Positions 2,263 through 42,276 of a stretch of DNA of 64,000 bases are shown piece by piece (position 1 is the stretch's first letter; every line of letters begins with the position of its first letter). A program made the translations under genes and the position numbers. The notes under the pieces are model-generated. The model was given only the letters and a program-made list of their open reading frames with translations, was not told where the DNA came from and made no database searches. The stretch is taken from contig NC_090354.1 in the NCBI RefSeq assembly GCF_035084215.1, positions 10,726,001-10,790,000 on the forward strand. Direction: 5' to 3'. Origin of the DNA: Heptranchias perlo (lineage: Eukaryota).

Positions 2263-2916
2263 TCAACAGTCCTCCTTTATTTCAGCCTCTGTCTTGTTCT
2301 CGCCACTCTCCTGTGTCTGTGCTTCTACGCCAGGATTTAGCCGGGGAGTGGTTGTTGTATCAGAGGTGATGTTGATGGGAACGGTTTGTTCATTCACAGC
2401 TGGCAGTGCCAGGCGTGGGGCTTGAACCTTTAACCGACCGTCCTGTGACAAACAGCAGTTAAGTGCTTGAGGATCGACATCTTCTGGCAGCTGAAATTCT
2501 CTCCTGAACTCTTCATATTTGTAGCTGTAACAGCCGCTCCCATCATCACTTTTCTTCTCATGTTTTCCTGTTACCAGCACTTTTCTTCCAAGTACTTTCA
2601 CCTTCAGTTCTTCTGGGGAGAATTGCTGGACATCCAGGGACAGAAAAAAGTCATCTCCATCCTTGTCCTCGGATTCTCTTTTATCTCCTTCGTGGTCATC
2701 AGGTTTGTTGTTCTGACTTCTTGGTCTTTCCTCCCAAAATTGTTTTGCGAGCTCCTCAAGAACTCGATTCAGGAAATTCATGCTCTTTCTCGCTTCTTCC
2801 GCCTGTTGCCAGCTGTTGCATTCAAACGGCTCAAAGACTGTGTGTGGAACAGGCCACAATGTGCACACAGGCTGCTGGCACAGACGTGAAGCGTGGAAAG
2901 CCCGACAGCTCAGCAT
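2263..2916 (-). CDS. hsp30: Small heat shock protein, hsp30/HSPB9-like, minus-type copy M1 (217 aa, intronless)
   Basis: Alpha-crystallin domain (LSLDVQQFSPEELKVKV...GKHE...FRREFQLPEDV...DGRLKV) followed by the IXI/V motif VPI. First ATG is at 2916; the ORF-track start at 2946 is TTG. TATA and HSE upstream, AATAAA at 2096-2101 on the minus strand. Confidence 0.93.
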   Translation of the reverse strand: MLSCRAFHASRLCQQPVCTLWPVPHTVFEPFECNSWQQAEEARKSMNFLNRVLEELAKQFWEERPRSQNNKPDDHEGDKRESEDKDGDDFFLSLDVQQFSPEELKVKVLGRKVLVTGKHEKKSDDGSGCYSYKYEEFRREFQLPEDVDPQALNCCLSQDGRLKVQAPRLALPAVNEQTVPINITSDTTTTPRLNPGVEAQTQESGENKTEAEIKEDC

Positions 2917-3010
2917 TGTCTCTGCCTCTTCTATCACTTCTCTCAAACCCGACTGATGTGAACTCCCAGTCTTCAGTCTCTGATCTGCTGCAGCACTCAG
3001 AACACACGCC

Positions 3011-3050
3011 TTATATATTCTACTCCCAGAAATCCAGACACTTCCAGAAT
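3011..3050 (-). promoter_or_regulatory. TATA box and proximal heat-shock element of M1
   Basis: Minus strand reads aTTCtgGAAgtGTCtgGATt (3031-3050), then TATATAA (3011-3017), about 95 bp upstream of the ATG. Alternating nGAAn/nTTCn units are the HSF binding site. Confidence 0.85.
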
Positions 3051-3157
3051 TTGCTAAACTTTACTGGGTTTATGACACGTGAGCAGAAAATAACTCACGT
3101 CTCATCTCTGCCTTGCTTTAACGAAGAATGACTCGGCTCAGTGACACCCTCTGGTGC

Positions 3158-3180
3158 AATTCCAGAGACTGCTGGAAGCT
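3158..3180 (-). promoter_or_regulatory. Distal imperfect heat-shock element of M1 (also present in the other minus copies)
   Basis: TTCcaGAGacTGCtgGAA keeps the 5-bp HSE periodicity with two perfect outer units. Confidence 0.5.
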
Positions 3181-4404
3181 GCTGACATTTGACATCACAG
3201 CTGGGCGGAGCAAATGATTGACAGCCCAGCAGAAGGAAGAGACTGTGGAGTAAAGTTGTGTTTGATCAGAAGTGTTCAACTTCATGAAATCTAAACTAAC
3301 ATTTTGAGATAATGAACAGTCAGTGGCTTTCTAGATCTGCTATTTTCATTCATTTTCAAAAGATTAAAGTGATATTTATCAACAGCAGAGCAGAGGGATC
3401 GAAAGAGTGAATTTCAGATCAGTTTGATTTAAATTATGTGAAGTTCTGATTCTATCCCATTCAGGTTCAGTGGTTGCCTTGTTTTTTGTTTCATTTGCCA
3501 CTGTTCGTTGCTATGGTAATGTGTTGCTATCCAGTTTTCCAAGATGATGGAGTGATGGCCTTTACATTCCTAGATTCTGGGGAGATATTCTACATACAGT
3601 ATTTTGTAGTCAGAAATAAAACAATTCGATAATGTTTAAAAATCTCTCCTCATGATAAATTATGCGTTATTTATAGAAAATTCAGCTAAACACTGACTCC
3701 AAGACAGACTAATGTTTAACCAGATGTGCGCATGAAGAGATTTATTTTCAAGGGGATGCACCACTCAGTGGAGATCCTCAGGTTGCTGAATTCCCTCTCA
3801 GACAGCTGTTAATGTACCTAATTCCCTAGTTTTCCTCTTCCAAGTGTAATTCTTTGTTCTGTGGCTGGTTTTAATTTTGATTCTGGATCTCTTATTCATG
3901 TTTCGTCCTCTCCCCACCCCCACCCCGCTACCAAAGTCCTTAAAATTTTTGTTTGTAAGTTAGCTTTTGTTCGGAAAGTGAAAATATATGTCGATTCCCT
4001 CTTGTTACGCGGCTATAACAACACAAATACCCGTTTTCTTGAACAAGTTTCAATAAGATCTGTTGTCAAGGACAATGGAGAACTCCATGCCTAAATCACT
4101 TCCTGGTTATGTCACTCTATGATTTTTCATTGGGAGACAAAGATACTGAGAATTCAGCTGAACCATTGTAACAAACTGAAAATTTAACAAACATGAGGCT
4201 GTATTCCTATTATATCAAATAAATTCATCTGAGCAGAGCTCCAGGTAGGCTCCGCCTACCTGGAATGGGTAGGAATATGTTAGTACACACTGGAAGTTTC
4301 TCAATTTGTGCCACTGTGTCACTGGACAGAGTCATTCTTGTTTAAAGCGAGGCTGAGGTGGAGTAATTATTTTCTGCTGACATGACATGAAGTCAGCAAT
4401 CTTC

Positions 4405-4445
4405 ATTCTGGAAGTGTCTGGAATGCTGGCATTTGAATATATAAA
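4405..4445 (+). promoter_or_regulatory. Heat-shock element and TATA box of plus copy P1
   Basis: aTTCtgGAAgtGTCtgGAAt (4405-4424, three perfect units) and TATATAAA (4438-4445). A further GAAgtTTC lies at 4293-4300. Confidence 0.87.
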
Positions 4446-4539
4446 GCGTGTGATCTGAGTGCAGCAGCAGACCAGAGACTGAAGACTGGGAGTTCACATC
4501 AGTCGGGTTTTGAGAGAAGTGATAGAAGAGGCAGAGAAA

Positions 4540-5193
4540 ATGCTGAGCTGTCGGGCTTTCCACCCTACACATCTGTGCCAGCTGCCTGGGCTCACGCTGA
4601 GACCTGTTCCACACAGTGTCTTTGAACTGCTCAAAGACAACATGTGGAAGCCAGTGGAAGAAGCGAGGAAGACCATGGATTGGGTCCATGAGCAGCTCTT
4701 AAGAGAATTGTTGGAGGAAAGATCAAAAAATCAGGACAACAGACCTGATGACTATGAAGAAAGTAAAACACAATCAGAGGGCCAGGATAGAGATGGCTTT
4801 TCTCTGTCCCTGGATGTCCAGCGATTCGCCCCAGAAGAACTGATGGTGAAAGTACTTGGAAGAAAAATGCTGGTTACAGGAAAACATGAGACGAAAAGTG
4901 ATGATGGGAGCGGCTGTTACAGCTACAACTATGAAGAGCTCAGGAGAGAATTTCAGCTGCCAGAAGATGTCGATCCTCAAGCACTTAACTGCTGTTTGTC
5001 ACAGGACGGTCAGTTAAAGGTTCAAGCCCCACGCCTGGCACTACCAGCTGTGAATGAACAAACCGTCCCCAGCAACATCACCTCTGATACAACAATCACT
5101 CCCCGACCAAATTCTGGCAAAGAGCCACAGAGACAGAACAGTGGAAAGCCTGAGGGAAACAAGAAAGAGGCCGAAACAAAAAAGGACTTTTAA
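4540..5193 (+). CDS. hsp30: Small heat shock protein, hsp30/HSPB9-like, plus-type copy P1 (217 aa, intronless)
   Basis: ATG at 4540 (MLSCRAFHP...), alpha-crystallin domain, distinct N- and C-terminal regions, AATAAA at 5389-5394. Confidence 0.92.
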   Translation: MLSCRAFHPTHLCQLPGLTLRPVPHSVFELLKDNMWKPVEEARKTMDWVHEQLLRELLEERSKNQDNRPDDYEESKTQSEGQDRDGFSLSLDVQRFAPEELMVKVLGRKMLVTGKHETKSDDGSGCYSYNYEELRREFQLPEDVDPQALNCCLSQDGQLKVQAPRLALPAVNEQTVPSNITSDTTITPRPNSGKEPQRQNSGKPEGNKKEAETKKDF

Positions 5194-8494: not shown

Positions 8495-9148
8495 TCAACA
8501 GTCCTCATTCATTTCAGACTCTGTCTTGTTCTCGCCACTCTCCTGTGTCTGTGTTTCTACGTCAGGATTTAGCCGGGGAGTAGTTGTTGTATCAGAGGTG
8601 ATGTTGATGGGAACGGTTCGTTCATTCACAGCTGGCAGTGCCAGGCGTGGGGCTTGAACCTTTAACCGACCGTCCTGTGACAAACAGCTGTTAAGTGCTT
8701 GAGGTTTGACATCTTCTGGCAGCTGAAATTCTCTCCTGATCTCTTCATATTTGTAGCTGTAACAGCCGCTCCCATCATCACTTTTCGTCTCATGTTTTCC
8801 TGTCACCAGCACTTTTCTTCCAAGTACTTTCACCTTCAATTCTTCTGGGGAGAATTGCTGGACATCCAGGGACAGAGAAAAGTCATCTCCATCCTTCACC
8901 TCGGAATCTCTTTTATCTCCTTCATTGTCATCAGGTTTGTTGTTCTGATTTCTTGGTCTTTCCTCCCAAAATTCTTTGGCGAGTTCCTCAAGAACTCGAT
9001 TCAGGAAATTCATGCTCTTTCTCGCTTCTTCCATCTGCCGCCGACTGTTACATTCAAACGGCTCAAAGACTGTGTGTGGAACAGGCCACAATGTGTACAC
9101 AGGCTGCTGGCACAGACGTGAAGGGTGGAAAGCCCGACAGCTCAGCAT
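8495..9148 (-). CDS. hsp30: hsp30/HSPB9-like copy M2 (217 aa)
   Basis: Intact ORF near-identical to M1; ATG at 9148; TATA/HSE at 9243-9282. Confidence 0.92.
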   Translation of the reverse strand: MLSCRAFHPSRLCQQPVYTLWPVPHTVFEPFECNSRRQMEEARKSMNFLNRVLEELAKEFWEERPRNQNNKPDDNEGDKRDSEVKDGDDFSLSLDVQQFSPEELKVKVLGRKVLVTGKHETKSDDGSGCYSYKYEEIRREFQLPEDVKPQALNSCLSQDGRLKVQAPRLALPAVNERTVPINITSDTTTTPRLNPDVETQTQESGENKTESEMNEDC

Positions 9149-9520
9149 TGTCTCTGCCGCTTCTATCACTTCTCTCAAACCCGACTGATGTGAACTCCCA
9201 GTCTTCAGTCTCTGATCTGCTGCAGCACTCAGAACACACGCCTTATATATTCTACTCCCAGAAATCCAGACACTTCCAGAATTTGCTAAACTTTGCTGGG
9301 TTTATGACACGTGAGCAGAAAATAACTGACGTCTCATCTCTGCCTTTGCTTGAAAGAAGAATGACTCGGCTCAGTGACACCCTCTGGTGCAATTCCAGAG
9401 ACTGCTGGAAGCTCCTGACAAGGTGACATCACAGCTGGGCGGAGCAAATGATTGACAGCCCAGCAGAAGGACGAGACTGTGGAGTAAAGTTGTGTTTGAT
9501 CAGAAGTGTTCAACTGAATG

Positions 9521-9705
9521 AAAGGATTTTTCTGACGTACAGAATGAGAAGAATGATTCACATTTTAAGTTTCGCACTAGCTTCCTTCGAGTTCATTTCC
9601 ACCAGTGTACAATTGCTCTGTGATGTACGGCCGAAGTTCATTGCAAACGAATGTCAACAGTCCTTATTCATTTCAGACTCTGTCTTGTTCTCGCCACTCT
9701 CCTGT
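9521..9705 (-). pseudogene. 3' relic of a minus-type hsp30 (last codons and part of the 3' UTR)
   Basis: Matches ~11738-11922 (QESGENKTESEMNKDC stop, plus UTR). Confidence 0.85.
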
Positions 9706-9842
9706 TTAAATTTGATGCTGTATCTCTATTCATGTTCACCCCCAACACCCATCCTCCCACCACCACCACCTCGTGTTCCAATGTATTCAAATTTTCTTTT
9801 TCTAAATTATATTTTCACTTTCCAAACAAAAGCTATCACAAT

Positions 9843-10112
9843 TCCAGCTGTGAATGAATGAATGAATCATCTCCAGCAACATCATCTCTGATACAACACC
9901 CACTCCCGGCCAAATTCTAGGAAAGAGCCACAGAAACAGGGCAGTGGAAAGGATGAGGGGAACAAGAAAGAGGCTGAAGAAAAGAAAGGACATTTTAGAT
10001 TCATTTACAGTGACCTTTTGGAAGATGAAAGAATAATTGAATATAGAGAGACAGGAGTTTTTGAGACAATGGAATGAATACTGAAAATTAATTCTCATTT
10101 TTATCTTTATCC
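9843..10112 (+). pseudogene. 3' relic of a plus-type hsp30
   Basis: Matches the P1 C-terminus (...DTTPTPRPNSRKEPQKQGSGKDEGNKKEAE...) and the start of its 3' UTR. Confidence 0.82.
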
Positions 10113-11870
10113 TTAACATCTTTAGGTAGCCATGGAAGGATCATTTTTCCCCTGGAGTTTTCATTTCTCAACAGAATGTATGTTCATTGAGAATTATGAA
10201 ATTTTTCTTTCAATGTTTGCCATTGATTCTCTACAGTTACACCTTTTAATCTAATTTCCCAATCTTCCTTAGCCAACTGGAGGTTTATTCCCTAAATTAG
10301 GTGACAGTCTTGGCGCAGTGCTCGCGCGCTCACCTTAGAACCAGAAGGTGTTGGGTTCAAGACCCAGTCCATAGTCCTGAGCACATTATTTGGGCTGATA
10401 ATTCAGTGTGGGAATGCTGCACTGTAGGGGCTGCCGTCTTTCAGGTGGGAGATTAAACTCAAGTCCCACCTGCTCCCTTGGATGGAAGTAAAAAATCCCA
10501 CGACCCTATTCAGAGTTCTGACAGATTCCTGGGCAACATTTACCCCTCAGCCAAAACCACCAAGAACAGATTATCTGGTCATTTATCACAGTGTGTTTGT
10601 GGGACCTTGCTCTGACAAAATTCGCTGCAGCATTTGGCTACTTTGCAACAATAACTGAATTTCAAAGTAATTAAATATTTATGAAGCACTTTGGGATGAC
10701 CCGAGCACATTAAAGATGCCGTTTCAATGCAAATTCTTTCTTTATAAACAGAAATAATATATTTTTTTAAAAATTAGTTGAAAATAAAGAAGCTGCTACC
10801 AGTTTAGAAAGAAATTACAAAAAAATGTATTTTGATATATTAAATATGCAAATACAGCAAATTAATATAATAAATTACTGGTGTAGAATCATACAGCACA
10901 GAAGGAGGCCATTTGGCCCATCATACCTGTGCCGGCTCTTTGAAAGAGATATCCCACTCCTATGCTCTTTCTCCATAGTCCATTAATTTTTCCCTTATTA
11001 AGTGTGTATCCAATTCCAATTTTGAAATTTTCCATTAAATCTACTTCCACCACCCTTTCACACAGTGCAGTCCAGATCATAACGACAGATAATTACTGGC
11101 TGAGTAATTTTCATTTTCCCTTTGGTTCTTTTGTCAATTATCTTAACTATGTGTCCTTTGGTCAGCAACTGTCCTGCCAATGGAAACAGTTTCTCCTTAT
11201 TTGCTCAATCAATGTCCCTCATAATTTTGGACACCACTATTAAATCTCCCTTTGACCTTCACTGCTGGAAGGAGAACAATCCCAGTTTCTCCAGTCTCTC
11301 CACATAACTGAAGTCTCTCATCCCTGGTATCATACCGGTAAATCTCGTCTAAACCCTCTCCAATGCTTGTAAGAATATGAGAAAAGACAAAGTGGATTCA
11401 GTAATATAAAAGGCTCACGGGGAGTTTTTGTTAAAAACGTTATCCAACAATTGAAAATGTCATGACCGAAACGTCTGGAATTGTAATTGTTTGTGTCCCA
11501 GGTGCTCCACGGTACTCAGCTGCATGACTGACTAAGACATCACATTTGGACACCGGATTGAAACCTTCACTCCTTTTAAATCTCACTGCACTCTGACAAG
11601 AGCCTGGAGTGGAATGTGGAGATCTGCAACTATTTCAATATTTTAAGATTATAATTATTAAAATGAGGAAACACCAATTCAGAGATTTGTACTTTATTAC
11701 CACAATATACAAAGTAAATACACTGCTTGTATTCAAGAAAGGATTTTTCTGACGTACAGAATGAAAAGAATGATTCACATTTTCCGTTTCACACTAGCTT
11801 ACTTCAAGTTCATTTCCACCAGTATACAATTGCTCTGTGATGTACAGCAAAAGTTCATTGCAAACGAATG

Positions 11871-12524
11871 TCAACAGTCCTTATTCATTTCAGACTCTGT
11901 CTTGTTCTCGCCACTCTCCTGTGTCTGTGTTTCTACGCCAGGATTTAGCCGGGGAGTGGTTGTTGTATCAGAGGTGATGTTGATGGGAACGGTTCGTTCA
12001 TTCACAGCTGGCAGTGCCAGGCGTGGGGCTTGAACCTTTAACTGACCGTCCTGTGACAAACAGCAGTTAAGTGCTTGAGGTTCGACATCTTCTGGCAGCT
12101 GAAATTCTCTCCTGAACTCTTCATATTTGTAGCTGTAACAGCCGCTCCCATCATCACTTTTCTTCTCATGTTTTCCTGTCACCAGCACTTTTCTTCCAAG
12201 TACTTTCACCGTCAGTTCTTCTGGGGAGAATTGCTGGACATCCAGGGACAGAGAAAAGTCATCTCCATCCTTGTCCTCGGATTGTCTATTATCTCCTTCA
12301 TTGTCATCAGGTTTGTGGTTCTGATTTCTTGGTCTTTCCTCCCAAAATTCTTTGGCGAGCTCCTCAAGAACTCGATTCAGGAAGTTCATGCTCTTTCTCG
12401 CTTCTTCCACCTGTTGCCACCTGTTGCATTCAAACGGCTCAAAGACTGTGTGTGGAACAGACCACAATGTGTACACAGGCTGCTGGCACAGATGTGAAGC
12501 GTGGAAAGCCCGACAGCTCAGCAT
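11871..12524 (-). CDS. hsp30: hsp30/HSPB9-like copy M3 (tandem unit 1)
   Basis: Intact 217-aa ORF; TATA/HSE at 12619-12658. Confidence 0.92.
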   Translation of the reverse strand: MLSCRAFHASHLCQQPVYTLWSVPHTVFEPFECNRWQQVEEARKSMNFLNRVLEELAKEFWEERPRNQNHKPDDNEGDNRQSEDKDGDDFSLSLDVQQFSPEELTVKVLGRKVLVTGKHEKKSDDGSGCYSYKYEEFRREFQLPEDVEPQALNCCLSQDGQLKVQAPRLALPAVNERTVPINITSDTTTTPRLNPGVETQTQESGENKTESEMNKDC

Positions 12525-13599: not shown

Positions 13600-13855
13600 A
13601 ATGAACGAATCATCTCCAGCAACATCATCGCTGATACAACACCCACTCCCGGCCAAATTGTGGGAAAGAGCCACAGAAACAGGGCAGTGGAAAGGATGAG
13701 GGGAACAAGAAAGAGGCTGAAGTAAAAAAGGACATTTAAGACTCATTTACAGTGAACTTTTGGAAGATGAAAAAATAATTGAATATAGAGAGACAGGAGT
13801 TTCTGAGACAATGGTATGAATACTGAAAATTAATTCTCATTTTTATCTTTATCCT
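13600..13855 (+). pseudogene. 3' relic of a plus-type hsp30 in the tandem unit (also at +4482, +8964, +13446)
   Basis: Reads NERIISSNIIADTTPTPRPNCGKEPQKQGSGKDEGNKKEAEVKKDI stop; promoter and alpha-crystallin domain are missing. Confidence 0.85.
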
Positions 13856-14213
13856 TTAGTTAGCCATGGGTGGATCATTTTTCCCCTGGAGTTTTCATTT
13901 CTCAACAGAATGTATTTTCATTGAGAATTATGAAATTTTTCTTTAAATGTTTGCCATTGATTCTCTACTGTTACACCTTTTAATCTAATTTCCCAATCTA
14001 CCTTAGCCAACTGGCCCCTCATACCTATATAATTGGCTTTATTTAAAGTTTAAGACTCTAGTTTCTGACTGAAGTGTGTCACTCTTGAACTTAATGTGAA
14101 ATTCATCATACTATGATCAATCTTCCCCAGAGGATCCCTTACTATGATTAACCATGTCTCATTAAACAAGAAAAGTTCTGAAACTGCCTGATCCCTGATA
14201 GTTTCCTAGAACA
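13856..14213 (-). mobile_element. CR1 ORF2 internal (endonuclease-region) fragment in each tandem unit; shorter piece at ~10120-10280
   Basis: Reverse complement of 14130-14212 resembles CR1 sequence at 63908-64000 in this window. Confidence 0.6.
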
Positions 14214-16352: not shown

Positions 16353-17006
16353 TCAACAGTCCTTATTCATTTCAGACTCTGTCTTGTTCTCGCCACTCTC
16401 CTGTGTCTGTGTTTCTACGCCAGGATTTAGCCGGGGAGTGGTTGTTGTATCAGAGGTGATGTTGATGGGAACGGTTCGTTCATTCACAGCTGGCAGTGCC
16501 AGGCGTGGGGCTTGAACCTTTAACTGACCGTCCTGTGACAAACAGCAGTTAAGTGCTTGAGGTTCGACATCTTCTGGCAGCTGAAATTCTCTCCTGAACT
16601 CTTCATATTTGTAGCTGTAACAGCCGCTCCCATCATCACTTTTCTTCTCATGTTTTCCTGTCACCAGCACTTTTCTTCCAAGTACTTTCACCGTCAGTTC
16701 TTCTGGGGAGAATTGCTGGACATCCAGGGACAGAGAAAAGTCATCTCCATCCTTGTCCTCGGATTGTCTATTATCTCCTTCATTGTCATCAGGTTTGTGG
16801 TTCTGATTTCTTGGTCTTTCCTCCCAAAATTCTTTGGCGAGCTCCTCAAGAACTCGATTCAGGAAGTTCATGCTCTTTCTCGCTTCTTCCACCTGTTGCC
16901 ACCTGTTGCATTCAAACGGCTCAAAGACTGTGTGTGGAACAGACCACAATGTGTACACAGGCTGCTGGCACAGATGTGAAGCGTGGAAAGCCCGACAGCT
17001 CAGCAT
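16353..17006 (-). CDS. hsp30: hsp30/HSPB9-like copy M4 (tandem unit 2)
   Basis: Protein identical to M3; TATA/HSE at 17101-17140. Confidence 0.92.
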   Translation of the reverse strand: MLSCRAFHASHLCQQPVYTLWSVPHTVFEPFECNRWQQVEEARKSMNFLNRVLEELAKEFWEERPRNQNHKPDDNEGDNRQSEDKDGDDFSLSLDVQQFSPEELTVKVLGRKVLVTGKHEKKSDDGSGCYSYKYEEFRREFQLPEDVEPQALNCCLSQDGQLKVQAPRLALPAVNERTVPINITSDTTTTPRLNPGVETQTQESGENKTESEMNKDC

Positions 17007-20834: not shown

Positions 20835-21488
20835 TCAACAGTCCTTATTCATTTCAGACTCTGTCTTGTTCTCGCCACTCTCCTGTGTCTGTGTTTCTAC
20901 GCCAGGATTTAGCCGGGGAGTGGTTGTTGTATCAGAGGTGATGTTGATGGGAACGGTTCGTTCATTCACAGCTGGCAGTGCCAGGCGTGGGGCTTGAACC
21001 TTTAACTGACCGTCCTGTGACAAACAGCAGTTAAGTGCTTGAGGTTCGACATCTTCTGGCAGCTGAAATTCTCTCCTGAACTCTTCATATTTGTAGCTGT
21101 AACAGCCGCTCCCATCATCACTTTTCTTCTCATGTTTTCCTGTCACCAGCACTTTTCTTCCAAGTACTTTCACCGTCAGTTCTTCTGGGGAGAATTGCTG
21201 GACATCCAGGGACAGAGAAAAGTCATCTCCATCCTTGTCCTCGGATTGTCTATTATCTCCTTCATTGTCATCAGGTTTGTGGTTCTGATTTCTTGGTCTT
21301 TCCTCCCAAAATTCTTTGGCGAGCTCCTCAAGAACTCGATTCAGGAAGTTCATGCTCTTTCTCGCTTCTTCCACCTGTTGCCACCTGTTGCATTCAAACG
21401 GCTCAAAGACTGTGTGTGGAACAGACCACAATGTGTGCACAGGCTGCTGGCACAGATGTGAAGCGTGGAAAGCCCGACAGCTCAGCAT
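20835..21488 (-). CDS. hsp30: hsp30/HSPB9-like copy M5 (tandem unit 3)
   Basis: Differs from M3 by Y>H (PVHTL); TATA/HSE at 21583-21622. Confidence 0.92.
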   Translation of the reverse strand: MLSCRAFHASHLCQQPVHTLWSVPHTVFEPFECNRWQQVEEARKSMNFLNRVLEELAKEFWEERPRNQNHKPDDNEGDNRQSEDKDGDDFSLSLDVQQFSPEELTVKVLGRKVLVTGKHEKKSDDGSGCYSYKYEEFRREFQLPEDVEPQALNCCLSQDGQLKVQAPRLALPAVNERTVPINITSDTTTTPRLNPGVETQTQESGENKTESEMNKDC

Positions 21489-25316: not shown

Positions 25317-25970
25317 TCAACAGTCCTTATTCATTTCAGACTCTGTCTTGTTCTCGCCACTCTCCTGTGTCTGTGTTTCTACGCCAGGATTTAGCCGGGG
25401 AGTGGTTGTTGTATCAGAGGTGATGTTGATGGGAACGATTCGTTCATTCACAGCTGGCAGTGCCAGGCGTGGGGCTTGAACCTTTAACTGACCGTCCTGT
25501 GACAAACAGCAGTTAAGTGCTTGAGGTTCGACATCTTCTGGCAGCTGAAATTCTCTCCTGAACTCTTCATATTTGTAGCTGTAACAGCCGCTCCCATCAT
25601 CACTTTTCTTCTCATGTTTTCCTGTCACCAGCACTTTTCTTCCAAGTACTTTCACCGTCAGTTCTTCTGGGGAGAATTGCTGGACATCCAGGGACAGAGA
25701 AAAGTCATCTCCATCCTTGTCCTCGGATTGTCTATTATCTCCTTCATTGTCATCAGGTTTGTGGTTCTGATTTCTTGGTCTTTCCTCCCAAAATTCTTTG
25801 GCGAGCTCCTCAAGAACTCGATTCAGGAAGTTCATGCTCTTTCTCGCTTCTTCCACCTGTTGCCACCTGTTGCATTCAAACGGCTCAAAGACTGTGTGTG
25901 GAACAGACCACAATGTGTGCACAGGCTGCTGGCACAGATGTGAAGCGTGGAAAGCCCGACAGCTCAGCAT
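25317..25970 (-). CDS. hsp30: hsp30/HSPB9-like copy M6 (tandem unit 4)
   Basis: Differs from M3 by Y>H and T>I (ERIVPI); TATA/HSE at 26065-26104. Confidence 0.92.
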   Translation of the reverse strand: MLSCRAFHASHLCQQPVHTLWSVPHTVFEPFECNRWQQVEEARKSMNFLNRVLEELAKEFWEERPRNQNHKPDDNEGDNRQSEDKDGDDFSLSLDVQQFSPEELTVKVLGRKVLVTGKHEKKSDDGSGCYSYKYEEFRREFQLPEDVEPQALNCCLSQDGQLKVQAPRLALPAVNERIVPINITSDTTTTPRLNPGVETQTQESGENKTESEMNKDC

Positions 25971-29786: not shown

Positions 29787-30440
29787 TCAACAGTCCTTAT
29801 TCATTTCAGACTCTGTCTCGTTCTCGCCACTCTCCTGTGTCTGTGCTTCTACGCCAGGATTTAGCCGGGGAGTGGTTGTTGTATCAGAGGTGATGTTGAT
29901 GGGAACGGTTCGTTCATTCACAGCTGGCAGTGCCAGGCGTGGGGCTTGAACCTTTGACTGACTGTCCTGTGACAAACAGCAGTTAAGTGCTTGAGGTTTG
30001 ACATCTTCTGGCAGCTGAAATTCTCTCCTGAACTCTTCATATTTGTAGCTGTAACAGCCGCCCCCATCATCACTTTTCTTCTCATGTTTTCCTGTCACCA
30101 GCACTTTTCTTCCAAGTACTTTCACCTTCAGTTCTTCCGGGGAGAATTGCTGGACATCCAGGGACAGAGAAAAGTCATCTCCATCCTTGTCCTCGGATTG
30201 TCTATTATCTCCTTCATTGTCATCAGGTTTGTTGTCCTGATTTCTTGGACTTTCCTCCCAAAATTCTTTGGCGAGCTCCTCAAGAACTCGATTCAGGAAG
30301 TTCATGCTCTTTCTCGCTTCTTCCACCTGTTGCCACCTGTTGCATTCAAACGGCTCAAAGACTGTGTGTGGAACAGGCCACAATGTGTACACAGGCTGCT
30401 GGCACAGACGTGAAGGGTGGAAAGCCCGACAGCTCAGCAT
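29787..30440 (-). CDS. hsp30: hsp30/HSPB9-like copy M7
   Basis: Open 217-aa frame, but DSQSKV replaces DG(Q/R)LKV; TATA/HSE at 30535-30574. Confidence 0.85.
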   Translation of the reverse strand: MLSCRAFHPSRLCQQPVYTLWPVPHTVFEPFECNRWQQVEEARKSMNFLNRVLEELAKEFWEESPRNQDNKPDDNEGDNRQSEDKDGDDFSLSLDVQQFSPEELKVKVLGRKVLVTGKHEKKSDDGGGCYSYKYEEFRREFQLPEDVKPQALNCCLSQDSQSKVQAPRLALPAVNERTVPINITSDTTTTPRLNPGVEAQTQESGENETESEMNKDC

Positions 30441-31707: not shown

Positions 31708-34358
31708 TGTTTTTTTATTCATTCGTGAGCTCTGGGCGTCGCTGGCAAGGCCAGGATTTCTTGCCCATCCCTAATTGCCCTTGAGAAGGTGGTGGTGAGC
31801 CGCCTTCTTGAACTGCTGCACTCCGTGTGGTGAAGGTTCTTCCACAGTGCTGTTAGGTTAGGGAGTTCCAGGATTTTGACCCAGCGATGAAGGAATGGTG
31901 ATATATTTAAAAGTCAGGATGGTGTGTGACTTGGAGGGGAACGTGTAGGTGGCGCTCTTCCCATAAGCTTGATACCCTTGTCCTTCTAAGTGGTAGAGGT
32001 CGCGGGTTTGGGAGGTGCTGTCGAAGAAGTCTTGGCGAGTTGCTGCAGTGCATCCTGTAGATGGTACACACTGCAGCTGCTTGCGCCGGTGGTGAAGGGA
32101 GTGAAAGTTTAAGGTGGTGGATGGGGTGCCAATCAAGCGGGCTGCTTTGTCCTGGATGGTGTCGAGCTTCTTGAGTGTTGTTGGAGCTGCAATCATCCAG
32201 GCAAGTGGAGACTATTCCATCACACTCCTGACTTTTGCCTTGTAGACGGTGGAAAGGCTTTGGGGAGTCAGGAGCTGAGTCACTCACCGCAGAATACCCA
32301 GCCTCTGACCTGCTCTTGTAGCTACAGTATTTATATGGCTGGTCCAGTTAAGTTTCTGGTCAATGGTGACCCCCAGAATGTTGAAGGATGGGGATTCGGC
32401 GACGGTAATGCCGTTGAATATCAAGGGGAGGTGGTCAGACTCTCTCTTGTTGGAGGTGGTCATTGCCTGGCACTTGTCTGGCACGAATGTTACTTGCCAC
32501 TTATCAGCCCAAGCCTGGATGTTGTCCAGGTCTTGCTGCATGCGGGCACGGACTGCTTCATTATCTGAGGAGTTGCGAATGGAACTGAACACTGTGCAAT
32601 CATCAGCGAACATGCCCACTTCTGACCTTATGATGGAAGGAAGGTCATTGATGAAGCAGCTGAAGATTGTTGAGCCTCGGACACTGCCCTGAGTAACTCC
32701 TGCAGCAATGCCCTGGGGCTGAGATGATTTGCCTCCAACTACCATGGCCATCTTCTTTTGTGCTTGGTATGATTCCAGCCACTGGAGAGTTTTCCCCCTG
32801 ATTCCCATTGACTTCAATTTTACTAGGGCTCCTTGATGCCACACTCGGTCAACTGCTGCCTTGATGTCAAAGGCAGTCACTCTCACCTCACCTCTGGAAT
32901 TCAGCTCTTTTCTCCATGTTTGGACCAAGGCTGTAATGAGGTCTGGAGTCAAATGGTCTTGGCAGAATGCCAAACTGAGCATTGGTGAGGTTATTGGTGA
33001 GTAAGTGCCGCTTGATAGCACTGTCAACGACACCTTCCATCACTTTGCTGATGATTAAGAGTAGACTGATGGGGCGGTAATTGGCCGGATTGGATTTGTC
33101 CTGCTTTTTGTGGACAGGACATACCTGGGCAATTTTCCACTTTGTTGGGTGGATGCCAGTGTTGTAGCTGTACTGGGACAGCTTGGCTAGAGGCGCAGCT
33201 CGTTCTGGAGCACAAGTCTTCAGCACTACAGCCAGGATGTTGTCAGGGCCCATAGCTTTTGCTGTATCCAGTGCACTCAGCTGTTTCTTGATATCACGTG
33301 GAGTGAATCGAATTGGTTGAAGACTGGCTTCTGTGATGGTGGGGATATCGGGAGGAGGCAGAGATGGATCATCCACTCGCACTTCTGGCTGAAGATGGTT
33401 GCAAATGCTTCAGTCTCGTCTTTTGCACTCATGTGCTGGGCTCCGCCATCACGAGGATGGGGTTGTTCACGGAGCCCCTCCGTTACTTGTTTAATTGTCC
33501 ACCACCATTCACGACTGGATGTGGCAGGACTGCAGAGCTTTGATCTGATCCGTTGGTTGTGGGATCGCTTAGCTCTGTCTATAGCATTCTGCTTCGGCTG
33601 TTTGGCATGCATGTAGTCCTGTGTTATAGCTTCACCAGGAAGTCTTGGTGATTTGCTGCAGTGCATCCTGTGGATGGTACACACTGCAGCCACTCCTCAT
33701 TGAACCAGGGTTGATCCCCTGGCTTGTTGGTGATGGTAGAGTGAGGAATATGCTGGGCCATGAGGTTACAGATTGTGCTGGAATACAATTCTGCTGCTGC
33801 TGATGGCCCACAGCGCCTCATGGATGCCCAGTTTTGAGCTGCTAGATCTGTTCTGAATCTATCCCATTTAGCACGGTGGTAATGCCACACAACATGATGG
33901 AGGTGTTGTCAGTGTGAAGATGGGACTTCGTCTCTTCAAGGACTGTGCAGTGGTCACTCCTACCAATACTGTCATGGACAGATGCATCTGCGACAGGTAG
34001 ATTGGTGAGGACAAGGTCAAGTAGGTTTTTCCCCTCGTATTGGTTCTCTCACCACCTGCCGCAGGTCCAGTCTGACAGCTATGTCCTTCAGGACTGGGCA
34101 AGCTCAGTCAGTAGTGGTGCTACTGAGCCACTCTTGGTGATGGACATTGAAGTCCCCCACCCAGAGTATATTCTGTGACCTTGCTACCCTCAGTCCTGCC
34201 TCCAAGTGGTGCTCAAAATGGAAGAGGACTGATTCATGAGCTGAGGGAGGACGGTAGGTGGTAATCAGCAGGAGGTTTCCTTGCCCATGTTTGACCTGTG
34301 CCATGAGACTTCATGGGGTCCAGAGTCAATGTTGGGGACTCCCATGGCCACTCCCTCC
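31708..34358 (-). mobile_element. 5'-truncated, frameshifted non-LTR retrotransposon (CR1/L2 group), ~2.65 kb
   Basis: RT motifs DIKAAVDRVWH, GVTQGSV, FADD and NYRPISLL; endonuclease remnants YRPPS and GDFNVHH; A-rich tail at 31708-31720. Flanks rejoin as ttcatct|gag, as in the empty site at 4224-4240. Confidence 0.92.
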
Positions 34359-34649: not shown

Positions 34650-35260
34650 AATGTTTGTGCCAGCTGCCTGCACGCACACTGAGAACTGTTCCTGAACTGC
34701 TCGAAGGCAACATGTGGCAGCCAGTGGAAGAAGCGAGGAAGACCATGGACTGGGTTCATGAGCAGCTCTTAAGAGAATTTCTGAAGCAAAGATCAAAACA
34801 TCAGGACAACAGACCTGATGAGAAACAAGAAGGTAAAAGACAATCAGAGGGCTAGGATGGAGATGGCTTTTCTCTGTCCCTGGATGTCCTGTGATTCTCC
34901 CCAGAAGAACTGAAGGTGAAAGTATTTGGAAGAAAAGTGCTGGTGACAGGAAGACATGAGAAGAAAAGTGATGATGGGGGCGGCTGTTACAGCTACAAAT
35001 ATGAAGAGTTCAGGAGAGAATTTCAGCTGCCAGAAGATGTCAATCCTCAAGCACTTAACTGCTGTTTCTTTCAGGATGGTCAGTTAAAAGTTCAAGCCCC
35101 ACGCCTGGCACTGCCAGCTGTGAATGAACGAGCCAAACCCATCAACATCACCTCTGATACAACAACCACTCCCCGCCCAAATTCTGGCAAAGAGCCACAG
35201 AAACAGAACAGTGGAAAGGATGAGGGGAACAAGAGGCTGAAACAAAAAAGGTCTTTTAGA
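34650..35260 (+). pseudogene. hsp30 plus-type pseudogene P2
   Basis: Colinear with P1, but the start region is replaced by unrelated sequence. It has a short deletion after gttcc, an in-frame TAG at 34853-34855, a TGA near 34892 and a 4-bp deletion near the 3' end. The 3' UTR and AATAAA are retained. Confidence 0.88.
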
Positions 35261-36508: not shown

Positions 36509-37162
36509 TCAACAGTCCTCATTCATTTCAGCCTCTGTCTTGTTCTCGCCACTCTCCTGTGTCTGTGCTTCTACGCCAGGATTTAGCCGGGGAGTGGTTG
36601 TTGTATCAGAGGTGATGTTGATGGGAACGGTTTGTTCATTCACAGCTGGCAGTGCCAGGCGTGGGGCTTGAACCTTTAACCGACCGTCCTGTGACAAACA
36701 GCAGTTAAGTGCTTGAGGTTCGACATCTTCTGGCAACTGAAATTCTCTCCTGAATTCTTCATATTTGTAGCTGTAACAGCCGCTCCCATCATCACTTTTC
36801 TTCTCATGTTTTCCTGTCACCAGCACTTTTCTTCCAAGTACTTTCACCTTCAATTCTTCTGGGGAGAATCGCTGGACATCCAGGGACAGAGAAAAGTCAT
36901 CCCCATCCTTGTCCTCGGATTGTCTATTATCTCCTTCATTGTCATCAGGTTTGTTGTTCTGATTTCTTGGTCTTTCCTCCCAAAATTCTTTGTCGAGCTC
37001 CTCAAGAACTTGATTCATGAAATTCATGCTCTTTCTCGCTTCTTCCACCTGTTGCCACCTGTTGCATTCAAACGGCTCAAAGACTGTGTGTGGAACAGGC
37101 CACAATGTGTACACAGGCTGCTGGCACAGACGTGAAGGGTGGAAAGCCCGACAGCTCAGCAT
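36509..37162 (-). CDS. hsp30: hsp30/HSPB9-like copy M8
   Basis: Intact 217-aa ORF; TATA/HSE at 37257-37296. Confidence 0.92.
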   Translation of the reverse strand: MLSCRAFHPSRLCQQPVYTLWPVPHTVFEPFECNRWQQVEEARKSMNFMNQVLEELDKEFWEERPRNQNNKPDDNEGDNRQSEDKDGDDFSLSLDVQRFSPEELKVKVLGRKVLVTGKHEKKSDDGSGCYSYKYEEFRREFQLPEDVEPQALNCCLSQDGRLKVQAPRLALPAVNEQTVPINITSDTTTTPRLNPGVEAQTQESGENKTEAEMNEDC

Positions 37163-37744
37163 TCTCTCTGCCTCGTCTATCACTTCTCTCAAACCCGACT
37201 GATGTGAACTCCCAGTCTTCAGTCTCTGATCTGCTGCAGCACTCAGAACACACGCCTTATATATTCTACTCCCAGAAATCCAGACACTTCCAGCATTTGC
37301 TAAACTTTACTGGGTTTAGGACACGTGAGCAGAAAATAACGGACGTCTCATCTCTGCCTTGCTTGAAAGAAGAATGACTCGGCTCAGTGACACCCTCTGG
37401 TGCAATTCCAGAGACTGCTGGATTGTCCTCATACAGTGACTGCACTCATGGGAGGGGCAAAGTTAATGATTGACAGCTGAGCCTAAGGACAAGATTGCAT
37501 GATAAAGTGGGATTTGTGAAGGAACAAAAATGTTCAACTTAACCTGATTAGCTTAGATTTGGGTTGGTTAAGATCAGTCAGTAATTCTCTAACTGCTTTT
37601 GGTGCAGTAATTTTAAAGGAAAGAGGTCGATGTGATATTTCGCAGCAGGAGACTAGAGTGATCAGAAAGTGAAGTTCAGGCCAGTTTGAAGTGAAATATC
37701 TAAAATTCTGATTCTATGCCATGCAGAGCCATTAATTCCCTTGA

Positions 37745-39137
37745 GGTGTCTGGGACTGTGGCATCAACGATCCCTCTCGATCGTGGGCAAGAACCTGGTC
37801 ATCAGGTGCGAGGTGCTCTCGGTGTTGCTGTACGTGGCGCAGGTCTGGCCCATACCTCGTTCCTGCGCCGCGACAGTCACCCGAGCCATCTTCCACTTTG
37901 TCTGGAGATCAAAAATGGACCGTGTCCGCAGGGTCACGATGTACAAATCTCCAGAGAAAGGGGGGAAAGGCGTGCCCAACGTGGCCCTCATCCTGATGGC
38001 CACCTTTGTGTGCGGCTGCATCAAGCTGTGCATAGACCCTCAGTACGCAAACACAAAGTGTCACTACGTGCTGAGGTTCTACCTGTCCCCGGTGTTGAGA
38101 AGGATGGGCCTGGCCACGCTGCCACGGAACACTCCGTCCAGTTGGACCGTTCCGCCCCACCTGTCCTTCGTGGAAAGGTTTGTGCAGGAAAACACCTTTG
38201 ACCACAAGGTGATCAGCAAGTGGTCCGCACGTAACGTCCTCGAGACCCTGCGGGAAAAGGAGATGGTGGATCCTGTCGGTTGGTTCCCCGAGCAGACTGT
38301 CAATGTCATTTGGCAGAACGCCTCATCGCCAGAGCTTTCAAACAAGCACCAAGACCTTGCTTGGCTGGTGGTGAGAAGGGCCCTTCCCGTCAGATCCTTC
38401 ATGCACTCCCGGACTCTCAGCGCCACCGCGCGCTGTCCCAGAGGAGGCTGCGGTGGAGACGAGACCGTCACCCATCTCCTTATGGAATGTGCCTTTGCAA
38501 AGAAGGTCTGGAGAGAGATGCAGTGGTATCTGTCCAGGTTCGTCCCGAGCAGTTCCGTAACACAGGTTTCTGTGCTCTACGGGCTGTTCCCGGGGACGCA
38601 CACTGAGACGGACATCAGCTGCTGCTGGAAGACCATCAACTCGGTGAAAGACGCCCTTTGGTCTGCCCGAAACTTGCTGGTCTTCCAGCACAAGGAGCTG
38701 TCCTCGACCGAATGTTGCAGACTGGCACATTCCAAGGTCCAGGACTACGTGCTGAGGGATGCACTGAGGATGGGTGCGGCCGCCGCAAAGGCCCTGTGGG
38801 GAAAGGCAACCGTTTAGAGCCTTCCCGCCATTGTAAACCGAGGGGCTGCAATCAGGGAAAAACCCCCTCGGGCAGAATGTAAAATTCAAATTGCTGTAAT
38901 GTATCTGTAATGAATCTGAAATGAATCTGTAAGCAATAATCTGTGTTGAGTATGATGCAATGAGACACCCTAGAGTGTCATGAACTGTAATTATGTCCGA
39001 TGTGTTCATTGAACTGTACTTGACGTAACCTGCAAATTGTATAATCTGTATTGTGTACGTTTGGAAAGTGATATGACAACTGTATTGTATGTACTGCTGC
39101 AAATTTTATGAATAAAGTATATTTTTTGAAAAAAAAA
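37745..39137 (+). mobile_element. 5'-truncated L1/Tx1-clade LINE (ORF2 C-terminus, 3' UTR, poly-A)
   Basis: Uninterrupted 358-codon frame with KGGKGVPN and the CCHC knuckle CPRGGCGGDETVTHLLMEC; AATAAA at 39111 and A-tail at 39130-39137. Confidence 0.88.
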
Positions 39138-39401
39138 GTCTGTAATTCACTGCAGTGCCTTGCTATGATGATCCATTACTGTCCTGTTCTACAATCTTCT
39201 ATCAACATTCTGGGTGCTTTATCGTGTCAGTGGCTGTGAACACGGTCATGAACTGTGACTTTTATTTAATTTAGAAACTTTAAAGTATGCTTTGTACAAT
39301 CCAGGGAGTACAGTGTACCCTTATAGTCACTGTGTATGAAAAGACTAGCAGCTCACCTGTGGTCTTGCTCACTATGAGCTGGAGGATACTCCAGAAATTA
39401 G

Positions 39402-39690
39402 ATGCATTTATATAGCACCTTTAACATAGTAAAACATCCCAAGGCACATCACAGGAGCGTTATTAAACAAAATTTGACACCGAGCCACATAAGGAGTTAT
39501 TAGGACAACCAAAAGCCTGGTCAAAGAGATAGACTTTAAGGAGCATCTTAAAGGAGGAGAGGTGCAGAGACGTAGATGTTTAGGGAGGGAATTCCAGAGC
39601 TTAGTGCCTAGGCAGCTGAAGGCACGGCCGCCAATGGTGGGCGATGAAAATCGGGGATGCGCAGGAGGCCAGAATTGGAGGGGCGCAGAT
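39402..39690 (-). mobile_element. L2 LINE 3' fragment
   Basis: GGRAFSCLGTKLWNSLP motif on the minus strand and the L2 tail gcatttatatagcaccttt. Confidence 0.8.
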
Positions 39691-40289
39691 ACATTGCGTT
39701 TATCAGCTAAGTGTGATGGGGCGGGTGCTGTAGGCAAGGTGATACTTACAGGAACCTTGTGCCATACACAAGACATTCAAATATATTATAGATGTGGAGA
39801 ATTTGGCAAGGATTTGGAGTAGGGCAACAAAGATCATTGTAGCACTTAGATCCCTAAGCCATAAATGACGACTAAATATACTGCCCTTTGAAAATGTTGC
39901 AAATTTTTTTAAATAATAAAGAGAATTGATGAGGTGGATGTGGAGAGTTATGTTGTGCAGAGTCAGGGTACACTATTTTAATCCTTAGTCAGCTAATTTC
40001 CTGATCAATCTTTCATTTATGAAACACAGCCACCTAGTGGAAAAAGCAGGGGGAGACACAGGATGAAAAACTGAGACCTTTTCTCACTCCTGTGTTCTTG
40101 TAATAAACTGGCAGGAATATTTAACATACAATATTCTATTAGCAGAAATCAAACAGTTTGAAAATGTTTAAATTTGTCTCCTCACATTTCACATTAAATA
40201 TTGTTTAATTTACTGAAAATCAACCAAAAGACAGGTCAGTCCTATTGGATGTGATTAAGATTTCAATTTGATAAGGACTGGATGATGAA

Positions 40290-40670
40290 TTGGTGTCACC
40301 TACCCTGCGGAGTTCCCGATCTCAAATACAGTCAACACATCCCAGGCATCTCCCCATAGAGAGTAGAAAGTTCATGCCACTCAAGTAACTATTATTCACT
40401 GGAGAGCCACACAGTGAGTGTTGGAAGACTGTGCAGCAATGAAGACCAATCACCTCCTCACCCAGTGTCCACACATCGGCGCTTCCATCAGGGGTTATCC
40501 TACGGCAATCAAGAGTGGAAAACCTTGCTGACTTTTCCTTCCTAACCCTGGAGTACTGCAAACATTCCTGGTGCTTCTGTCCCACCCGAGACCAGTTAAC
40601 TTTGCTCAGATTGAACCTGAAACCTTCTTGGTCTGTATGATTTAGAGATGACAACCTATGAGCTATCGCA
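40290..40670 (-). mobile_element. Probable degraded tRNA-derived SINE
   Basis: Reverse complement begins gatagctca...cagaccaagaaggtttcaggttcaatc (B-box-like) followed by a GC-richer body. Confidence 0.4.
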
Positions 40671-41324
40671 GGAACCTACAGACTTAATTCAGCAGTCTCA
40701 CTGACATATCAATTCCTTTGTTTTCTTTTTGCAAGGAGTACCATTATTCAATATAATGCTTTGTTGGGGAGCCTGCTTTTATCTGTGGTTCTGATATATT
40801 CATTTTTTCCAAAACTTTAAAATAAATACAAACACATTTACCTTTCCTTATCCAATTTAAAACCTTTCCAAGGTCTTAATTTTGTACAAAATGTTAATAA
40901 CACAAATACTAATTTTCTTAAACATCATGGCCCCAGAATTAAGCTTCTAAACCAATGATTTAACTAACCTCAGTTTCTGGAAGTTTTGACTAATTTCCAA
41001 GCCGTGCATCTGACTTTTCTTTGCTAAAGTAGTAAATTGAATTTTAAATACTTAAGTTGTAAAAGAGAAGAGTTCAAACAACAATGAAGTGAAAAATTCT
41101 GGTTTGAAAGGCAAAATAAAGCCACGAATGATGTCACTTCCTGTTTGGCCCACTCACTCGTCTTTCACTGTGAGTCACAGACAGTGGGAATTAAACAGAG
41201 CCATTTTAACATAAACTGATTTTTTAAAAACAATTTCTTGAAGTATGAGGGTCTGGTAGATTTGTAAAATTCAAAAGAATCATCAGAGACAGTGCTCCAG
41301 ACAAGCTCCTCCTACTTATGATGT

Positions 41325-41407
41325 TTGTAAACAATTTTACAACACCAAGTTATAGTCCAGCAATTTTATTTTAAATTCACAAGCTTTCGGAGGCTTCCTC
41401 CTTCCTC
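41325..41407. mobile_element. 83-bp insertion with 11-bp target-site duplication, resembling a Penelope-like element end
   Basis: ACTTATGATGT at 41314-41324 and 41408-41418. The insert (aacaccaagttatagtcc...cacaagctttcggag) resembles Penelope termini from recall. Confidence 0.65.
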
Positions 41408-41695
41408 ACTTATGATGTCACTGTGTTAGTACATTCCAGAAGTCTCGAATGGTGCCAGCTCATCACTGGCAGGAGTAATTCCTGTTTACTGCAAGGCCAA
41501 GGTGTCACAATAATTTTCTGCTCCTGTGTCACACACATTAAACTTCAGTTAATTCTGCAAGGTAGTGGATTTCTAGGAGTGGTATACATCAGGTGTGTGT
41601 TCTGAGTGCTGCAGCAGATCAGAGTCTGAAGACTGGGAGTTTCCAGCAGCCAGGGTTTTCAGAGAACTGATAAAGAGTTATGAGAGGCAGGGAAA

Positions 41696-42276
41696 ATGCT
41701 GGGCTGTCACATTTCCCACTTTCAGAGTCTGTGCCAGCAGACTGTGTACACACTGAGGCCTTTTCCACAGACAGTCTTTAAACAGCTTGAACACAATATG
41801 CAGAAACAGATGGCAGAAGCTAGGAAGACATGAGCAACTCTTAAAAGAATTTTTGGAGCAAAGATTAAGAAACCAGAACAACAGACCTGATGACAATGAA
41901 GAAGGTAAAAGAGAATCCGAGGGCCAGGATGGAGATGGCTTTTCTCTGTCCCTGGATGTCCAGCGATTCTCCCCAGAAGAACTGAAGGTGAAAGTACTTG
42001 GATGTCAGGAAAGTCCGGACGACAGGAAAATATGAGAAGAAAAGTGATGATGGGAGCGGCTGTTGCAGCTACAAATATGAAGAGTTCAGGAGAGAATTTC
42101 AGCTGTCAGAAGATGTCGCTGCTCAAGCACTTAACTGCTGTTTGTCACAGGACGGTTGGTTAAAGGTTCAAGCCCCACGCCTGGCACTGCCAGCTGTAAA
42201 TGAACAAACCGTCCCCATCAACATCACCTCTGATATAACAGCTACTGTCCAGTCAAAAGCTGATACAGAGAAATAG
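41696..42276 (+). pseudogene. hsp30 plus-type pseudogene P3 (most diverged copy)
   Basis: ATG at 41696 reads MLGCHISHFQSLCQQTVYTLRPFPQTVF...ARKT then stop, caused by a ~14-bp deletion at aagacatgag. A second frameshift (tgtc insertion) lies near 42003. The alpha-crystallin domain is split over ORFs 41787 and 41998, and the TATA is degenerate (gtatacat). Confidence 0.88.

Follow-up and report, generated by a model that had tools for sequence, protein, structure and literature searches.

Probable domain-limited gene conversion between two inverted hsp30 gene types in the shark Heptranchias perlo

The window, a 64-kb stretch of Heptranchias perlo DNA analysed as a whole, contains 11 hsp30 copies, eight on the minus strand (M1-M8) and three on the plus strand (P1-P3). 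With a probability of about 0.8, the cluster is a tandem array in which two old gene types are paired head-to-head and M sequence overwrote the P core by conversion, for the most part earlier than the P1/P2 duplication and from donors not assignable to the facing neighbour. Ectopic gene conversion between the types is well supported: silent divergence was lost locally with sharp borders, as expected of this process. The conversion analysis covered one haplotype of Heptranchias DNA.

Gene content and layout of the hsp30 cluster

All copies were located where a sequence-only reading of this DNA had placed them, M1-M8 spanning 2263-37162 on the minus strand and P1-P3 spanning 4540-~42330 on the plus strand. 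They share the HSP20 domain (Pfam PF00011; residues 85-182 in M1), matched with E=1e-19 in M1 and 1e-16 in P1. The ORFs are intronless, and their nearest homologues are annotated as hsp30C/HSPB11-like. A promoter scan found TATA in 8/9 copies and, in 6/9, a perfect TTCnnGAA, a predicted heat-shock element (HSE). The features are as follows.

332..383, plus strand: P-type 3' stub
2263..2916, minus strand: M1, intact M-type hsp30, 217 aa; core (CDS 267-577) at 2340-2650; TATA near 3017
4473..4566, plus strand: second tract (~93 bp), P1 5'UTR and first 9 codons, identical to M2, M7, and M8
4540..5193, plus strand: P1, intact P-type hsp30, 217 aa; TATA at 4438, HSE-like TTCnnGAA upstream
4797..5107, plus strand: homogenised core of P1, codons 90-192, alpha-crystallin domain and VPxNI stretch; zero sites where P1 and P2 agree against all M
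8495..9148, minus strand: M2, intact M-type; P1 lies tail-to-tail at 3301 bp
9654-9705, minus strand: M-type 3' stub near the next feature
9844..9995, plus strand: P-type 3' stub, placed head-to-head to M2
11871..12524, minus strand: M3, intact M-type, in the first of four 4482-bp tandem units
13600..13739, plus strand: P-type 3' stub after M3, with repeats at 18082, 22564, and 27046
16353..17006, minus strand: M4, intact, same protein as M3
20835..21488, minus strand: M5, intact
25317..25970, minus strand: M6, intact
29787..30440, minus strand: M7, intact; faces P2 head-to-head across ~4.2 kb that contains a LINE
31710..34357 (ends approximate), minus strand: broken LINE-type retrotransposon (RVT_1), an insertion between M7 and P2
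34620..35258, plus strand: P2, P-type pseudogene; core 34867-35177
36509..37162, minus strand: M8, intact; P2 lies tail-to-tail at 1250 bp and P3 head-to-head at 4533 bp
37744..41412 (ends approximate), no strand: M8-P3 spacer without homology to the other spacers; zf-RVT ORF at 37915-38817 (plus strand)
41696..42330 (end approximate), plus strand: P3, divergent P-type pseudogene; core 41939-42253

The start codons of the head-to-head genes M1 and P1 are 1623 bp apart, and tandem units U4-U6, at the copy number assembled, differ by 3-5 bases per 4482. P2 has a deleted start codon, two in-frame stops (near 34853 and 34892), and a small 3' deletion; P3 has a frameshifting deletion in its N-terminal part, a 4-bp core insertion, and a premature stop. 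The six P-type 3' stubs in the window and the LINE insertions separating pseudogenes P2 and P3 from their partners had been overlooked earlier. The M+P pair was duplicated as one unit, and the P copies then decayed to pseudogenes and stubs. The M/P pattern is unlikely to be an assembly artefact. M4-M6 were omitted from most tests as near-duplicates of M3, and eight further Heptranchias copies beyond the window (19 copies in all) were compared as proteins only.

None of the matching sequencing runs is registered as RNA. Contigs of run X5, guessed to be RNA and from the same sample as the best-matching DNA runs, span M1 and P1 and serve as a hint only; they include P1-like N-terminal pieces and leave the spacer at 3099-4430 uncovered. 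Contigs of X10 and X18, from other organisms, are ~3-6% off M1 in both the core and the 5' part and were left out of the comparisons.

Divergence of core and flanks

M and P genes differ by 20-45% at their ends and are 91-95% identical in their cores; the distinct termini and alike cores described earlier thus stand, the wording "nearly identical" being too strong. Between types, the core differs at 15-29/311 nucleotides, the N-terminus at 44-59/216-230, and the C-terminus at 23-39/77, with core boundaries set after inspection of the alignment. Sites at which P1 and P2 agree against all M copies number 0/311 in the core, 36/143 in the distal promoter, 31/218 in the N-terminus, 17/77 in the C-terminus, and 12/53 in the 3'UTR; at third positions the core has 0/104 versus 12/98 (p=1.2e-4). 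The P1/P2 stem branch is long in all flanks, has no length over codons 90-192, and is close to zero in the proximal promoter. Only one of the 55 fixed M/P differences falls in the core (run test p=0.0008). Of 21 fixed N-terminal differences, 19 are at codon positions 1-2.

Silent sites show the same drop. P1-M third-position differences are 17-19/92 in the termini versus 5-7/103 in the core (p=0.003-0.01), and dS is 0.22-0.34 versus 0.05-0.10. Under the strictest synonymous counting the signal is thinner (p=0.02-0.09 for codons encoding the same amino acid; 3/12 vs 4/44 at fourfold sites), and the LWL85 dS of P3 (0.12-0.14 vs 0.09-0.12) counts against conversion. Private changes of P1 and P2 (11 and 14/311 in the core; 6-7/143 and 13-14/218 in flanks) accumulated at a similar rate, so the core was not frozen by constraint. 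The core divergence of P1 from P2 (27/311) is close to that of the flanks (70/629, p=0.26), which indicates little conversion after their duplication.

The 93-bp tract at the 5' end of P1 passed a Sawyer-type permutation test (Bonferroni p=0.009). It had also been overlooked earlier.

In protein sequence comparisons, two N-terminal types are common to Heptranchias and the sawshark Pristiophorus, and the cores are species-specific. The N-terminal tree joins the P types of both species (98), and the core tree groups by species (95, 97); in AU tests, a P clade in the core was rejected (p=0.006), and a species clade in the N-terminus was not (p=0.056). Residues 11-65 contain 12 type-diagnostic columns; the core contains four species-diagnostic and no type-diagnostic columns. 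The sawshark M-P distance is 2.8% in the core versus 58% in the N-terminus. The P1 core protein of Heptranchias is 11.4% from its own M, those M being only 7.6% from sawshark M. This comparison was made at the protein level. Two long branches make up the cross-species P clade. Among nine candidates, the sawshark P-type N-terminus query recovered only itself, with no P type in galeomorphs or rays, in a search that relies on 5-mers in common and lists only representatives of 90% clusters. Module swaps combining an M N-terminus with a P-like C-terminus occur in XP_067825305 and in sawshark P0080 and P0081.

The absent core stem changes, the dS drop, and the AU result (p=0.006) uphold the earlier proposal that conversion between inverted types homogenised the core and left the termini distinct.

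Possible neighbour-specific exchange and alternative explanations

The sequence-only reading had further proposed that variants follow physical neighbours and that inverted arms exchange sequence locally, in the manner of Y palindromes and as a continuing process. Conversion mostly between facing inverted neighbours by fold-back pairing, still active today, is unlikely. In neighbour permutations (six site sets by three pairings), head-to-head pairing ranked 2/60 over all core sites and 7/60 without CpG sites, and the five neighbour pairs jointly ranked 82/720 and 12/720, respectively; the unconverted distal promoter, taken as a control, ranked 24/720, and these minima (2/60, 12/720, and 24/720) fail multiplicity correction. 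Tracking of neighbours beyond chance is not confirmed. In favour of neighbours, M7 equals P2 over CDS 354-443 and shares with it a non-CpG 379G unique among the 19 copies; this 90-bp tract has p=0.03 uncorrected but 0.86 corrected. At residue 149 the sisters P1 and XP_067825311 carry P and A, matching M1 and XP_067825312, respectively. XP_067825311 and XP_067825312 have consecutive accessions and may be adjacent.

Shared two-state variants occupy 6/311 core sites, a density no higher than in the flanks (8/204, 5/139, and 3/77), and four of the five distal-promoter variants involve a neighbour pair. Three core sites show same-site different-base coincidences, two of them between neighbours, which points to hot sites. 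In the Sawyer-type test, 7/28 pairs passed Bonferroni correction, none of them an M-P pair in the core, and the 5' tract of P1 fits M2, M7, and M8 better than the facing M1. The inverted arms measure 0.85-0.9 kb at 76-84% identity, outside the palindrome range (arms >10 kb, >99% identity), and the flank-rate private core changes and P1-P2 core divergence do not fit ongoing erasure of new mutations. DNA trees by partition are type-based in three flank partitions (P split from M, support 92-100) and star-like in the core (M7+P2 71/71, M1+P1 33/0), where a P clade is not rejected (p=0.41).

The motifs cited as neighbour marks were distributed in the window as described, and most recur outside it. 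DDGGGCY is confined to M7 and P2, and DDGGG remains unique to them (2/19 copies). EDVDPQ, in M1 and P1, occurs in 4/19 copies (also 307 and 313); HETKS, in M2 and P1, in 4/19 (also XP_067825311, a P type, and 313); and NEQT, in M1, P1, M8, and P3, in 6/19 (also 311 and 312). NER is present in M7/P2 and is no pair-specific mark, being common to M2-M7 and ancestral. Among 67 other shark and ray records, D148 is ancestral (63/67), C129 arose in parallel in carpet sharks (8/67), and P149, found in most Heptranchias M and P copies, is absent (0/67). Sites 442, 482, and 530 are CpG transitions, making 3/5 key sites CpG. A weak neighbour bias in conversion may exist.

A one-off chimera, with an M core set between P termini once in the P1/P2 ancestor by double crossover or a single long tract (P3 and sawshark P separately), is quite improbable. 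The complete loss of the P1/P2 stem and the later clock-like private changes fit one event just before the duplication, and module swaps do exist; however, at least four events would be needed (P1/P2 core, P3 core, sawshark core, and P1 5' tract), in effect a recurrent process of conversion. Zero exchange, with purifying selection holding the core, termini drifting or adapting, and shared variants ancestral or recurrent (CpG), would explain most cited motifs (D148 63/67, NEQ 8, DGQL 8, HETK 1) and agrees with the generally conserved cores and variable termini of sHSPs (PMC5101479), but is very hard to sustain since it cannot yield 0/104 third-position stem changes alongside flank-rate private changes, core residues species-specific across both types (AU p=0.006), or a core dN/dS of 0.4-1 for P1 vs M.

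Proposed mechanism and known systems

Under recurrent conversion between types, exchange would start at high identity (core, TATA/5'UTR) and stop at the diverged termini, and purifying selection may have kept the core convertible. Conversion was probably separate in each shark lineage (tract 90-192 in Heptranchias, about 75-204 in sawshark) and in Heptranchias appears to have slowed between M and P after the P1/P2 split; same-orientation M copies may have kept homogenising via unequal crossing over or conversion. M and P proteins are predicted to co-assemble via matching cores and present different N-terminal arms. Tentatively, and with considerable doubt, squalomorph sharks may hold two ancient hsp30 classes differing only in client-binding N-terminal arms on one alpha-crystallin + IXI module, reset per lineage by conversion within head-to-head pairs so that mixed oligomers stay compatible, with N-, core, and C-modules shuffled into chimeras.

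Among vertebrates, the cluster is a clean example of conversion confined to one domain of inverted sHSP paralogues that diverged long ago, and the start and stop of conversion are datable from the erased stem and subsequent clock-like decay. It cautions that core-based trees mask the cross-species P class, and M/P form a natural pair, alike in core and 50% different at the N-terminus, for probing the role of the sHSP N-terminus.

The process is already known in kind (hsp16, hsp70, Dlx), and the shark case was not found in print: the literature searched, with most subscription journals outside it, yielded nothing on shark hsp30 clusters or on conversion in hsp30 genes and no conversion analysis for vertebrate HSP30 subfamily genes. 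Gene conversion has reportedly been seen in Xenopus hsp30 genes.

Vertebrate HSP30 genes (Xenopus HSP30C/D, fish hsp30/hspb11, and bird HSP25/HSP30CL) are intronless alpha-crystallin genes as in the shark, and birds have two HSP30 subfamilies distinguished by their N-termini (PMC5101479). For insect sHSPs, little conversion is described and birth-and-death is favoured (PMC2745388, PMC8336396). Mammalian X/Y palindromes share inverted orientation and paralogue conversion with the shark cluster, but their arms are >10 kb and >99% identical with conversion ongoing, compared with 0.9 kb and 76-84% here (10.1101/800185, PMC3723533). The Capitella teleta Dlx inverted pair likewise shows conversion limited to a conserved domain (150-bp tract), but is a single tail-to-tail transcription-factor pair, unlike the shark tandem array of 19+ copies (PMC3199776). 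In dipteran hsp70 clusters that include an inverted pair (Stratiomys, and Drosophila by citation there), coding sequence is homogenised and flanks diverge as in the shark, likewise with pseudogenes and birth-and-death; there, however, the whole CDS is converted and allele data exist, compared with half the CDS and one haplotype in the shark (PMC3071340). The Caenorhabditis hsp16-1/hsp16-48 module likewise joins two sHSP types head-to-head and was duplicated as a whole; conversion was proposed there, with HSP16 tracts of 44-1113 bp, and conversion occurs whatever the orientation; its modules are 100% identical throughout, whereas the shark exchange ran between types and affected only the core and the 5' tract, at 91-95% identity (PMC3966223).

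Organisation of the hsp30 cluster

The window contains eight intact hsp30 ORFs of 217 aa each on the minus strand (M1-M8, M-type) and three P-type copies on the plus strand, of which P1 is intact and P2 and P3 are broken; the HSP20 domain is present in both types. Eight further Heptranchias perlo copies lie outside the window (XP_067825305-309 and XP_067825311-313), one of them P-type. The cluster is built from head-to-head M+P pairs. Two of these, M1/P1 and M7/P2, are duplicates of each other, flanks included. In the 4482-bp units of M3-M6, all that is left of P is a 3' stub of 140 bp, and the spacers of M7-P2 and M8-P3 now exceed 4 kb owing to LINE-type insertions. Individual features are as follows:

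9654-9995: M-type 3' end (minus strand) adjoining a P-type 3' stub (plus strand); a deletion has taken away the 5' half of each member of what was once a head-to-head pair
10775-28200: four tandem units of 4482 bp (M3-M6 with P stubs), U4-U6 differing by 3-5 bases; the expansion is very recent, and its copy number is likely variable
31710-32413 and 48428-49119: inverted LINE-related copies, 85.6% identity over 708 bp
41696-42330, plus strand: P3, a third old lineage, equidistant from P1/P2 and M (about 20-33% in promoter and N-terminus); QLEHN is common to P3 and the sawshark P type
43346-43663: minisatellite, 33-bp period, 9.6 copies, open in both directions, with no Pfam match
46321-46734: dispersed repeat, old (about 70% identity), that also occurs once per tandem unit, downstream of M

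Homogenisation of the core between gene types

The sequence-only reading held that the core was homogenised between gene types while the termini stayed distinct, and the fixed-site, stem-site and tree tests uphold this, with the core taken as CDS 267-577 (codons 90-192). Between -290 and the stop codon, 55 fixed M/P differences were counted, one of them in the core (run test p=0.0008), the borders of which were set only after the alignment had been inspected. The sharpest test was based on the sister pair P1/P2. Stem sites were defined as those where P1 and P2 agree but differ from all M copies. Upstream of the core, the distal promoter had 36/143 and the N-terminus 31/218; beyond it, the C-terminus had 17/77 and the 3'UTR 12/53. 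The core itself had 0/311, its P stem having been erased; at third codon positions, the counts were 0/104 in the core vs 12/98 outside (p=1.2e-4). Changes private to P1 (11) or P2 (14) accumulated in the core at near the flank rate, so constraint does not account for the absent stem. The dS for P1 vs M rose from 0.05-0.10 within the core to 0.22-0.34 across the termini; silent-only counts, in their strictest form, gave p=0.02-0.09, and the P3 signal was weaker. In DNA trees, P split from M at 92-100 support in three flank partitions, whereas the core formed a star. Core homogenisation between the M and P types is real.

A comparison with a second species, the sawshark Pristiophorus japonicus, served as the classic test; it covered proteins only and is to be read with caution, the trees containing long branches. 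Its three P-type proteins (P0052, P0084, and P0085) have in common with Heptranchias P a 3-residue deletion and nine residues at positions 11-65. Core columns included four species-diagnostic and no type-diagnostic ones. Type and species are discordant: N-terminal trees placed the P types of both sharks together (98), and core trees united the two types of each shark (95 and 97). The AU test rejected a P clade in the core (p=0.006) and did not quite reject a species clade in the N-terminus (p=0.056). The M-P protein distances were 2.8% (core) and 58% (N-terminus) in the sawshark, and 11.4% and 50% in Heptranchias. Stingray P0056 and P0057 (Hemitrygon, Hypanus) represent a third N-terminal type starting with MRNRR; the P0056 core resembles other Hemitrygon copies, which suggests the same domain-limited exchange in rays.

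Timing, tracts and mechanism

P1-P2 divergence is similar in the core (27/311) and flanks (70/629; p=0.26), so the bulk of the exchange is older than the P1/P2 duplication. The five M lineages differ at only 6-11/311 core sites, making recent homogenisation of same-orientation copies likely.

A second tract had been overlooked: about 93 bp of P1 (5'UTR and first nine codons) are identical to M2, M7, and M8 (Bonferroni p=0.009), and stem sites in the proximal promoter number 1/68. Since the sawshark P start differs from that of P1, a further conversion is likely, and promoter selection may contribute to the likeness. An M N-terminus is combined with a P-like C-terminus in XP_067825305 and in sawshark P0080 and P0081. 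In CDS 28-266, 19/21 fixed M/P differences fall at codon positions 1-2 and dN about equals dS; the N-terminal arm has possibly diverged adaptively.

Ectopic conversion would be seeded at the conserved core and TATA/5'UTR, would halt at the diverged termini, and would have proceeded independently in each shark lineage, presumably slowing in Heptranchias once P1/P2 had split. The core tract spans the alpha-crystallin domain and the IXI-like motif VPINI; matching cores are predicted to permit mixed M/P oligomers.

Proposed local exchange and known systems

Conversion might be local, acting palindrome-style between adjacent inverted copies, as proposed from variants that seemed to follow physical neighbours. 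All five cited motifs were found where expected, but their exclusivity mostly disappeared among 19 Heptranchias copies (HETKS 4/19, EDVDPQ 4/19, NEQT 6/19, and DDGGG 2/19). D148 (63/67 other shark and ray records) is ancestral, as is NER, carried by M2-M6 too; NEQ and DGQL each recur in 8/67 of those records. Sites 442, 482, and 530, underlying these motifs, are CpG transitions. The only non-CpG derived sites common to neighbours are 362 (M2/P1) and 379 (M7/P2), and 567 is common to the non-neighbours M2/P3. At three sites, M and P copies changed to different bases, indicating recurrent mutation at hot sites.

Once additive effects were removed, neighbour permutation ranked the three head-to-head pairs 2/60 with all core sites but 7/60 without CpG sites; all five neighbour pairs, tail-to-tail ones included, ranked 82/720 and 12/720, respectively. 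The bias is weak, and the unconverted distal promoter, as a control, ranked similarly (24/720). Sites at which M and P copies both vary between the same pair of states amounted to 6/311 in the core, against 8/204, 5/139, and 3/77 in unconverted parts. The M7/P2 tract (CDS 354-443) had p=0.03 uncorrected and 0.86 corrected. A hint of locality may come from residue 149, where the difference between P1 and its sister XP_067825311 parallels that between M1 and XP_067825312. Palindrome-style local exchange is unproven. Inverted homology per M/P pair is 0.85-0.9 kb at 76-84% identity, unlike that of palindromes (>10 kb, >99% identity).

No report on shark hsp30 clusters was found in the literature searched. 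Homogenisation is restricted to coding sequence in dipteran hsp70 (PMC3071340) and conversion to the domain in an inverted Dlx pair (PMC3199776). Caenorhabditis hsp16 (PMC3966223) resembles Heptranchias hsp30 in comprising sHSP genes in head-to-head modules with conversion, there in either orientation. That the Heptranchias hsp30 cluster is a new example of a known process is well supported.
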